The translations under genes and the position numbers were made by a program. DNA of 35,803 nt, taken from the NCBI GenBank assembly GCA_003990765.1, contig RBNJ01000238.1, positions 1 through 35,803 on the forward strand. Direction: 5' to 3'. This stretch comes from Jimgerdemannia flammicorona (Eukaryota). Position 1 is the stretch's first letter, and every line of letters starts with the position of its first letter. This document shows positions 25,623 through 28,516 of this stretch, piece after piece. The notes beneath the pieces are model-generated. The model did not search any database. It was not told where the DNA came from and worked only from the letters and a program-made list of their open reading frames with translations.

Positions 25623-28516
25623 GGTGCGACAGCCGATGGAGTTGCGTACCAAGCAGCAAGAGAAGCTCCATATCTCTGGTACCAGGAACTTGTCGACAGG
25701 AAAGAACGCGATTTTTGTGTTGGTGCTAAAATGTTTTTGGAGATGGCTGAAAAACAACTCACAGCTGCTGGGAAGAATATTGGTGGTTATAAGACTGATG
25801 CCCCTTTCGCCGTTCAATCCTCTGCGTCACCGGAAAAACCTAACCTACGGGAACTCCAAGGTAAACCATTTTAAATAATCTTTTTTATCACTTTGATCAT
25901 ATTGTTCAACTTCTCATACGTCTTTTACAGCGTATTTGCTGAGATTGAATCTCAAGCGACGTCTCGGAAATCTACAACGTGTTTATTCCAAAAAGGGTGA
26001 TATACTGTGGGTATGCGAAGCACATGTGGATAGATCCCTCATAAATGAGGGTGTGCAGATACTGCAGCAAATCTTCGCGAGCTCTGTGAAACCCAACGTT
26101 GAATTCGATGGTGCGGCTAGGGAGCTTAAGTTAGTATTGTTCTCTTTTCTATTTATGTTTTCAAGAAGTTGTTTAATAATTGTATCTCTCTCTGTTTGTC
26201 ATTAGAATCAACTTGTTAGATAATAAGTTATTTTCATTAATAAAAAAAAAAGATAATAAGTTATTTTCGAGCCTCAAGCCTCGAATAGTATCCTATTCCG
26301 ATACGGAAAATGAGGTGATTGTATGTTATGTCACATGAGTATATGAAAGACGCCATCTGACCGGTTTCGGACATTGTAGCTTTCAGTATATTTATTGTGC
26401 AGGCGACTTTCAAATTCTCGTGAATGCAACTTTCCCCCAGATCCTTTCGTAAGTATATTGAATGAATTACTATCTTGTTCATTATTAAATGCTAACTAGA
26501 ATAAGTCTTTTATTATTGTTATTATTATTAACCACCAGCTTTAACTGTTGCACTATACCGTGAGAATACGCTTTCTATTGAATTATTTGCTTGAATGCTG
26601 CTGATTCGCTCAATTAAAGTCAAATTATCTGTTGTTGAACAATTTCACTAGGTCAAACCTGTTCAATGCCTCACTTCCAGGAACTCGAGCTCTTTAGTAT
26701 GTCACGAATTTTTGCTCTGCATAATCAAGTATCCATTTGAACTTGCTTGCCTCCTCTGTGAATAGATAGTGGAATCGATGCTGACGTAATCCAAGCCTTG
26801 GCCAACTCTCTGAAGCGAAACACGACCCTGATTATGCTAGATCTCAATGGTATGTTAGGACTGTATGAACTGTTGTGCGTAGCGGCGTGATGGAAAGAAT
26901 TCTACAATCTGTTCGTGTTTGCTCATATCCTATTCGTTTTAAAGGGAATTACATTGGATACGAGGGGGCACGGATCCTAGCAGAGGCTCTGAAGCATAAC
27001 GTGGCCTTGAACGAGCTGAAGCTCGACTGTATGTCAGATTATTGTGTTCAGCTGTGTGATGAAATTAAGCTCACAATCTGTTCATTCATTCCCTGTTAAT
27101 TTCAAAGTGAATAGAATTAGCGACGCGGGGGCATGCGCCCTAGCCAAGTCTCTAAAGCAGAACACAAGCTTGACTACGCTAAACCTTGGAGGTATGTCTG
27201 AACTGTGGGAAGCATTGCATGATGGAATCAAGCTCACGGTCTGTGCGTGTTCGTACATCCCCTGTTTATTTTAAAGCAAATAATATCGGTCACGAGGGAG
27301 CCCGTGCCCTTGCTGAGACTCTAAAGCAGAACACGACATTGACTGGGCTGTATCTTGGAGGTATGTCAGAACTATGTGAAGCATGAAGCATTGTGCACAA
27401 CTATGTGATAGAATCAAGCTGATGGTCTATGCATGTTCGCTCATCCACTATTCACTTTTTAAGTTAACGATGAGGGTGCATGCGCCCTAGCCGAGTCTCT
27501 GAAGCAGGCAACAATGTTTACCGGTATGTCAGAACTGTGTTGTACCTGTGTGATCAAATCAAGCTCACAGTCTGCAGGTTTAACCTCCGGCCACGGGGGA
27601 GCACATGCCCAAGGCGAAGCTTTGAAGCAGAGAACGACCTTGACTGAGCTGTATCTCGAAGGTATGTCAGAATTGCATGCAGCTTCGTAATGGAATCAAA
27701 CTCATCGACCTTGCGTGTTCGTTCCTATTAAAGCGAATAACATCGGTGATACGGGGGCATGCGCCCTAGCCGAAACTATGAAACAGGACGCGACCTTGAC
27801 AAAACGGTATTTTAAAACTGTGTGAAGCATTGTGTGCAGCTAGCTACATGATGGAATCAAGATCGTGGTCTGTGCGTGTTTGGTCATCCCCTGTTTACCC
27901 CTGTTCATTTTAAAGATAATTACATTGGCAACAAGGGGGCTTGCGCCCTAGCCGAGTCTCTGTTAGAAAACACGACCTTGACCGAGCTGAATCTCGAAAG
28001 TATGTCAGAACTCTGTGAAGTATTGTGTACAGCTGCGTAATTGAACTAAGCTCACTTTCTGTGCGTTCTCTCATCTCCTGTTCATTTAAAGGGAATTTTA
28101 TCGATTACAATGGGGCATGCGCCATAGTTGAGTCTCTGAAGCGGAACAAGACCCTGACTAAAGTGAATCTCAGAGGTATGTCAGAACTGTGTGAAGCATG
28201 TGCAACCGTGTGATGAATTCAAGCTCATAGTCTGCTTGTTTGCCCATTCCATATTCATTTTAAAGGGAATAACATCCCTGAAGAGAAGATACACCTCCTA
28301 ATTGGGTATGTCAGAACGTTGTGAAGAATTGTGCGCAGCTGCATGATGAAATCAAATTTACGGTCTGTGCGTATTCTCACATCCCCCGTTCATTTTAAAG
28401 ATAACTCCATCAGACATAATGGGCTATCGAACGAGAAAACATCTTTTCGGTCAGAAAAACCGAAAAGTGCGCCTACGCGCATGAGTGTATCGTTGGGGTA
28501 TTGTTGTTATGGTTGA
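25623..28516 (+). pseudogene. 5'-truncated RNI-like LRR receptor-type gene: LRELQAYL...LGNLQRV...GDILWVCEAH domain followed by 11 LRR exon units
   Basis: Exons ~25623-25860 and 25931-~26129, then LRR exons 26766-26849, 26945-27028, 27108-27191, 27277-27360, 27464-27523, 27578-27661, 27734-27806, 27916-27999, 28092-28175, 28266-28305, 28401-28516 (consensus N.IG.EGA.ALAE.LKQNTTLT.L.L). The 73- and 40-nt units break frame unless skipped. Confidence 0.85.

Follow-up and report, generated by a model that had tools for sequence, protein, structure and literature searches.

Why should a fungal gene be built from a row of short exons of nearly uniform length, each accompanied by a similar intron? 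The question is raised by contig RBNJ01000238.1 of Jimgerdemannia flammicorona, of which positions 1 to 35,803 (in the following the window) were analysed, and more precisely by a gene on its forward strand (the window gene) that ends in an array of leucine-rich repeats (LRRs) at 26766..28516, here called array A. An earlier reading of the same DNA had proposed that the array is a set of cassettes that diversify a nonself receptor. Our analysis suggests that the window gene probably belongs to a family of putative LRR sensors that are intracellular and evolve by birth and death. In this family the sensor repeats appear, on balance, to be diversified in the DNA itself, by unequal crossover or gene conversion together with selection on a few ligand-face codons and with gene birth and death, and the window locus is one of the dead members.

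Array A consists of 11 exons and 10 homologous introns, all on the forward strand, and its exon lengths are, in order, 84, 84, 84, 84, 60, 84, 73, 84, 84, 40 and 116 nt. The first four exons (26766-26849, 26945-27028, 27108-27191 and 27277-27360) are followed by a 60-nt exon that stays in frame with a shortened repeat (27464-27523), exon 6 (27578-27661), a frameshifting 73-nt exon with a weak donor (27734-27806), exons 8 and 9 (27916-27999 and 28092-28175), a frameshifting 40-nt exon (28266-28305) and a terminal exon with the stop codon at its end (28401-28516). The introns are 54-109 nt long and mutually alike, and all of them are phase 1, since every exon reads as an LRR of the ribonuclease inhibitor (RI) type once two bases are skipped. 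Single exons match the LRR_6 profile weakly, under the cut-off, in three out of six cases, and the units are 68-81% identical among themselves. Exons 1-9 were also recovered by an automatic parse; exon 6 reaches 84 nt only via a weak cryptic acceptor behind a truncated intron of 54 nt, and a second parser placed different boundaries around it. The original prediction of 11 LRR units, with seven exons of exactly 84 nt and phase-1 introns, is borne out in this form, and the common intron consensus it proposed matches the 95-nt consensus derived from 671 introns of the family; it named the broken units of 73 and 40 nt and overlooked the in-frame exon of 60 nt.

The window gene is a pseudogene, because its 5' end is cut off and the exons of 73 and 40 nt each cause a frameshift. 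If all exons are included, a stop comes directly after the 73-nt exon (frame f1 of exon 27916); judged by eye, this exon may have lost 11 nt at the exon/intron edge, between a pair of short direct repeats. Upstream of the array the gene can be followed to about 25545. A remnant coding segment of a Mortierellaceae-type N-terminal region (25545..25871, +) is homologous to contigs C5685 (locus L059) and C114 (L060) and to 11 out of 12 fetched SAM-bearing paralogs; it is followed by a frame with the GNL..WVC..H motif of the Mortierellaceae family (25897..26202, +, profile E 4.5e-5) and by degenerate small exons that join the N-terminal region to array A (26264..26696, +, donor at 26697). Positions 25600-26470 match C5685, and in part C114, and 26264-26467 are 71% identical to L059. 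In L059 an exon farther upstream codes for a domain that has 632 relatives at E<=0.001; nine out of ten relatives looked up are hypothetical proteins named from Mortierellaceae, and two out of 20 scanned homologs end in LRR_6 repeats with strong matches. The window retains the later motif of this domain. The earlier exon has no match in the window, and the place where the 5' exons would be expected is taken by AT-rich, CpG-free (observed/expected ratio 0.0), decayed transposon-like DNA (22500..25480, no strand assigned). By these homologies the source lineage would be of Mucoromycota type. The N-terminal domain gave no Pfam match, no usable Atlas match and no significant PDB sequence match, and a model of its homolog P0175 (pLDDT 79) gave no fold match at E<=0.001 or Z>=8, negative results that establish neither novelty nor absence.

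Nothing identifies the window gene as a NOD-like receptor (NLR): no NB-ARC match was found in the upstream frames of L059 or around the 12 SAM-class paralogs, and the surviving upstream DNA belongs to the Mortierellaceae-type class. For 25400-31000 no RNA data set on record was listed, and two runs had small shares of 0.16 and 0.06. Since the window gene is truncated at its 5' end and frameshifted, and its units are of low identity to each other and to other scored loci, the broken units reflect decay; the idea of working diversification cassettes finds support in its relatives and not at this locus.

These relatives are numerous. Exact matches to a 22-nt exon motif number 484 across the genome, against none for its reversed control, so the recurrence of the cassette is not due to chance. 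The first 60 fetched stretches and the window contain 977 units in 60 arrays, and stretches fetched later contain 257 further units. The family has roughly 2,000 units of the type found in array A, a figure extrapolated from the 238 out of 977 units that bear the motif, in a sample picked by similarity. The largest array has 49 units (C5862). When the first three and the last units are left out, 627 out of 743 internal exons are 84 nt long, 53 have another length divisible by three and 63 cause a frameshift. The consensus of 692 exons plus the junction codon is an RI-like repeat of 28 residues with an LxxLxLxxN core and a helix. Among the most homogeneous arrays, several take up a small contig or reach a contig edge (C21307, C20145, C19845 and C14881), and the youngest arrays are probably under-assembled. 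Two or three inverted LRR units stand beside arrays at L042 (5804-6209, +) and L070 (5928-6148, -) and recall the reverse-strand LRR exons of Ectocarpus. Metagenome scans with the intron motif and with the exon motif gave 0 loci each.

The arrays are attached to several unrelated modules. A TKL-type kinase lies upstream at 25 loci; other partners are NB-ARC-Sel1-ankyrin, Zn2Cys6 with ankyrin (L033), another kinase (L063) and TPR (L041), and the combination of SAM with the Mortierellaceae-type domain has 50 matches in the genome, with weak SAM profile matches (above the cut-off in one out of four). Two sister kinase genes have 49 and 33 units. Intact paralogs, on which the original prediction had staked its reading, do exist: 13 out of 25 kinase arrays are free of broken internal exons, and there are open-frame genes among the NB-ARC class. 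A weak Crinkler N-terminal-like frame (L098, 126-611, +; 20.1 bits, below the cut-off) lies upstream of a 24-unit array, and in L139 (6769-7806, -) two tandem SAM-like exons precede the Mortierellaceae-type domain.

The NB-ARC genes deserve a closer look. An NB-ARC piece has 136 matches in the genome, 20 of them near full length at >=70% identity. The Pfam NB-ARC scores of L046, L074 and L079 are 37.5-41.4 bits (cut-off 23.5), and the P-loop, Walker B, GxPL and xHD-like motifs are visible in L061, L074 and L079. In each of these three genes one long exon encodes NB-ARC, Sel1 and ankyrin repeats and ends in an LRR tail with the array's own phase-1 donor; spliced in silico, these genes are open through 19, 10 and 20 LRR exons, respectively. 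As Sel1 and ankyrin repeats stand between the NB-ARC and the LRRs, these are not classical NB-LRR proteins. L046 has a stop inside its array, and in L092 the contig end is reached. Among 14 further close paralogs, nine have LRR units and five stop at a contig edge just past the ankyrins; among six distant ones an array was found only in L127, within the stretch fetched. Six homologs come from other samples: the ends of P0028 and P0029 (48-50% identical) look by eye like an LRR tail that continues into the same donor, three others lack such a tail and one is a fragment. We infer from these sequences that an LRR array was added onto an ankyrin-type NLR, in a fusion that would predate this genome. 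Longer NB-ARC homologs (1,249-3,565 aa) were searched as well and showed no close relative.

The cassettes are of two types. All 12 fetched SAM-class genes carry arrays of 84-nt exons with the same border and with a different intron and repeat consensus (type B), while the window gene and L059 combine a SAM-class N-terminal region with the units of the kinase and NB-ARC genes (type A). Either their array was swapped or type A arose in their sub-lineage, and the data favour neither. The reciprocal swap, i.e. a kinase with type B units, was considered for L069, L078, L063 and L062 and rejected; their introns are gene-specific, yet closer to type A. The introns of L069, L078 and L121 are unlike the family consensus and appear gene-specific. 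The window copy is a relic, and what makes it matter is this pairing of an N-terminal class shared with Mortierellaceae with the cassette type of kinases and NB-ARC genes.

The course of variability along the repeat is uneven. In the 692-exon consensus the entropy is 3.83 bits at the junction codon and 3.05-3.21 bits at positions 27, 2 and 5, and only 0.1-0.65 bits at the framework leucines. In young arrays the exons have diverged more than the introns (0.142 vs 0.038 in L047), and in L089 the proportion of nonsynonymous differences (pN) is 0.67 at position 27 and 0.62 at position 28, against an intron divergence of 0.026. Among 84 disjoint closest unit pairs (3.8% background), picked without using the variable codons, residue changes number 52 at the junction, 40 at position 27 (28 of them multi-base), 32 at position 5 and 29 at position 2. 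Silent changes, by comparison, amount to 1-4 per site, and the framework leucines are altered 0-7 times. In these counting tests four codons, including the one split by the intron, outpace the introns of young arrays, in line with the diversification of exposed positions that had been predicted. The units of type B are also most variable at positions 27 and 2.

The arrangement of the units points to exchange between them. On near-identical backgrounds codon 27 switches between states with all three bases different, and its states TCY and GAA are both present in 30 out of 57 genes, which belong to different domain classes. In three out of six arrays the multi-base states form four-gamete sets. 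Block duplications are plain in C5862 (units 30-33 vs 35-38, 98-100% match), L043 (units 11-13 vs 14-16, 90-97% match) and L041. Within genes, exon and intron distances co-vary (Spearman 0.72), and near-identical units occur on different contigs. Older paralog pairs are colinear in the first one to four units only, or nowhere, and one otherwise colinear pair has a divergent tract at units 5-7 (80-88% vs 92-96%). Unit number and order thus differ among paralogs, with block duplications and recombined units present, and at the level of the family the proposed unequal crossover or exon shuffling finds support as unequal crossover or conversion acting together with selection. Of the outcomes that would have spoken against the original prediction, none was seen among those that could be examined.

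How could such a system work? The repeating unit would be one 84-nt exon with its phase-1 intron of about 95 nt, and because entire exon-intron units are homologous, crossover between misaligned units, or gene conversion, should keep the frame whether it falls in the intron or in the conserved core of the exon. Each exchange would alter the number of repeats, homogenise the backbones within a gene and re-pair the variable codons of the two exon ends. Selection would then maintain diversity at repeat positions 27, 28 (the intron-split codon), 2 and 5, at or just after the beta-strand. The beta-strand and the residues following it are the usual ligand face of RI-type LRRs, and we speculate that these positions contact a ligand. 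Whole arrays have, in addition, become fused to the TKL kinase, to NB-ARC-Sel1-ankyrin, to Zn2Cys6-ankyrin and to SAM with the Mortierellaceae-type domain. The architecture, and the analogy with the HNWD genes of Podospora discussed below, suggest that what is sensed might be nonself (endobacteria, viruses, competitors or host). The innate-immune or nonself role first proposed is putative, deduced from domain architecture and selection. A bolder version holds that at least 2,000 cassettes form one genome-wide pool common to kinases, NB-ARC receptors and other modules, that recombination in introns builds a ligand-facing residue from two half-codons, and that the pool, dead arrays included, is reshuffled so quickly, possibly among the nuclei of one mycelium, that it serves as an anticipatory immune repertoire; we offer it as a speculation with a small chance of being right.

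Several points weigh against diversification by exchange and selection. Over all 5,644 within-gene pairs the codons expected to be exposed have a pN of 0.376 and a proportion of synonymous differences (pS) of 0.392, and the excess at exposed codons is clear only in young arrays; in array A pN (0.35) is lower than pS (0.50). The evidence for selection comes from counting tests, and recombination can mimic selection. A distance-decay test for recombination was significant, uncorrected, in only eight out of 32 arrays. The recent pair L040/L042 (97% upstream identity) is colinear at 14 out of 14 units, so shuffling is not constant. The nearest neighbour of a unit lies within the same gene for only 268 out of 671 units, which fits old divergence as well as exchange, and contig ends truncate some of the short arrays in the kinase tree. 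In L061 transcript contigs cover both the NB-ARC and the LRR parts, and the splice junction joining them is absent among the joints listed.

Some of these points could also be explained by neutral tandem-repeat turnover in a repeat-bloated genome, i.e. by slippage and crossover with unconstrained surface residues, in scaffold or regulator proteins that take no part in a recognition arms race. Overall pN is indeed below pS, many arrays are broken, as the 63 frameshifted internal exons testify, and the intron divergence of 0.206 is near the four-fold-site divergence of 0.229; with such values an extra constraint on the introns is not needed, and their homology requires no function. However, unconstrained sites should evolve at the rate of introns or silent sites, and positions 27 and 28 exceed that rate about 10-25-fold in young arrays; moreover, the same positions are the most variable ones in the separate type B unit. 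We therefore regard neutral turnover as unlikely.

Combinatorial alternative splicing as the main diversifier, as in Dscam or the brown-algal ROCO genes, was part of the original prediction: symmetric exons would be skipped, new junction residues would be created and the 73- and 40-nt exons could be bypassed. The anatomy would allow it, as all exons are symmetric and phase 1 and 5,226 out of 5,347 non-adjacent joins are free of stops, and skipping of LRR exons is reported for brown algae (PMC11378527) and for human NLRP3 (PMC6642158). The transcripts of the family were followed in two runs, X1 and X2, presumed to be RNA and matched to L061 at 80% likeness (1,569 and 2,480 contigs). Several contigs of both runs pass from the tail of one exon directly into the start of the next, i.e. 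the spacers are removed and the family transcripts are spliced. Two exon-exon joins of X1 can each be placed uniquely in the genome; they lie in C6071 and connect neighbouring exons. Apparent skips at 80% likeness come from cross-mapped paralogs and were not taken as exon skipping; combinatorial splicing is thus unshown, with both traced joins adjacent and cross-mapping able to hide skipping. Stop codons arise at one out of 542 junctions of adjacent exon pairs vs 121 out of 5,347 junctions of non-adjacent pairs, which argues that selection acted mainly on the genomic order. The introns give no structure signal (mean folding z +0.44, two out of 40 below -2), and the idea of an intron hairpin or introner was dropped. 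The window gene would in any case lack its 5' end. Splicing in the family is most likely mainly constitutive, and as the main source of diversity combinatorial splicing is quite improbable. At position 6454 of L061 two X1 contigs carry four extra donor bases, as if the second GT of the donor had been used; they may come from a paralog.

Could dead arrays such as array A be kept as a library of donors that feed expressed genes by gene conversion, possibly during mitosis in the coenocytic mycelium? Multi-base codon states common to different genes and classes, near-identical units on separate contigs, the divergent tract in an otherwise colinear pair and the few inverted units beside arrays would all agree with such a library. 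However, a two-unit piece of array A has a best identity of 79% elsewhere (40 of 384 candidates scored), which shows no recent donation, and where near-identical units lie on separate contigs, a fragmented assembly may have broken up a single gene. We consider the chances of a donor library to be slim. A base-specific targeted mutator was considered and set aside: the changes affect the first two positions of a codon and come in multi-base blocks, which selection combined with recombination explains better.

The preferred reading, exchange in the DNA with selection on few codons, can be compared to known systems. Arrays with one LRR per exon are known from brown algae (PMC3341825, PMC11378527), Tetrahymena (PMC6564038) and human NOD/NLRC genes (PMC6642158), and the WD40 repeats of Podospora HNWD genes are described as evolving in concert, with four codons under diversifying selection (PMC1805685, PMC4986451). 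The HNWD/het-d/het-e genes (Paoletti et al. 2007, PMC1805685; Dyrka et al. 2014, PMC4986451) resemble the present family in being fungal sensor repeats with concerted evolution within and between genes and four diversifying codons; they differ in carrying WD40 repeats on NACHT proteins and in their proven role in allorecognition. The present family has a putative sensing role, its repeats are LRRs in which every unit has an intron and the codon at the junction is split, and where there is an ATPase it is NB-ARC. We know of no such per-unit introns in HNWD repeats. Concerted evolution is seen here as within-gene homogenisation, gene-specific introns and block duplications, and the counting tests likewise single out few diversifying codons. 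By analogy, HNWD may be the best model for how the cassette family works.

The LRR-ROCO genes of brown algae (Zambounis et al. 2012, PMC3341825; Teng et al. 2024, PMC11378527) are described with one LRR per symmetric exon, variable exon number and order, many pseudogenes, selected ligand-face sites and a candidate immune role. Their exons are of 72 nt and phase 2, they lie N-terminal to a ROC-COR GTPase and splice variants are reported for them. The fungal family shares the one LRR per symmetric exon and the variable number and order; its exons are of 84 nt and phase 1, with short homologous introns, and lie C-terminal to at least four unrelated signalling modules. The N-terminal domain of the window gene's class has no Pfam, PDB-sequence or fold match to ROC-COR. 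It may bear some likeness to the C-terminal region of ROCO proteins.

The Tetrahymena LRR exons (2019, PMC6564038) are described as exon/intron units in the thousands, exact in length and fixed in phase, with a junction residue; they expanded clonally through unequal crossover and were fused to kinase domains. Those of the ciliate are 90 nt long and phase 2, mostly under purifying selection and associated with retrotransposons. The human NOD/NLRC genes (Hoss et al. 2019, PMC6642158) are comparable to the NB-ARC paralogs, with an RI-type LRR of 28 residues per frame-preserving exon behind a STAND ATPase. They differ in being few, in having NACHT instead of NB-ARC-Sel1-ankyrin and, as far as the accessible text of PMC6642158 goes, in that no homologous introns or concerted evolution are described. 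The relatives of the window gene's own class are hypothetical proteins of Mortierellaceae (KAF9291741.1, KAG0053389.1) that combine the PRLF..RLYFLCE..H..H / GNL..WVC..H domain with LRR_6 and a 28-residue repeat of the same type; unlike the other systems they are unnamed, no fold match was found for them and LRR_6 appeared in only two out of the 20 homologs scanned.

In papers from 2014-2025, fungal NLRs are said to use WD40, ankyrin or TPR repeats without LRRs (PMC4986451, PMC12881547, PMC5658179, PMC9815663, as far as accessible). Our search of the literature, which largely excluded subscription journals, found no description of this fungal LRR cassette family. A survey of 122 proteomes with LRR profiles (PMC12258605) has no 'LRR' entry in 12 of its 17 readable supplements; an LRR-bearing fungal NLR may be listed elsewhere in that survey. 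The attachment of LRR cassettes to both kinases and NB-ARC proteins is a combination that published surveys, in the parts accessible, have not found in fungi. The open-frame NB-ARC-Sel1-ankyrin-LRR genes, together with the kinase-LRR genes that use the same cassette, would represent a further independent origin of nucleotide-binding LRR receptors. Wrong annotation of arrays with such short introns, or their break-up in assemblies, might be the reason for the LRR gap in surveys. The family also lends itself to testing the case of a residue that is hypervariable and encoded on both sides of a splice junction. The significance of these observations rests on the family and on its NB-ARC-LRR members, not on the window locus.

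The rest of the window contains a second, more decayed LRR array (array B, ~8042..7160, -) with five detected units of 72-83 nt and one lost donor, adjoining CpG-depleted repeat DNA from ~8200. Its first units resemble the start of kinase-class arrays, and the CpG-depleted DNA occupies the expected site of the kinase. Direct repeats at 8206-9163 and 14584-15459, about 80% identical and 6.3 kb apart, flank AT-rich DNA in the manner of the ends of a decayed long terminal repeat element. A 19-nt tandem unit is present in about 28 copies at 1812-2397, with higher-order periods of 63 and 82, and there are inverted repeats at 721-836 (55-nt arms, 6 nt apart) and 21507-21910 (83-nt arms, 238 nt apart). 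According to Pfam the neighbours include ordinary genes, namely a 2OG-Fe(II) oxygenase-like one (5817-6868, +) and a cytidylyltransferase-like one (32953-33933, -), and a HIT-like gene was recognised by eye only at ~29600-31200 (-).

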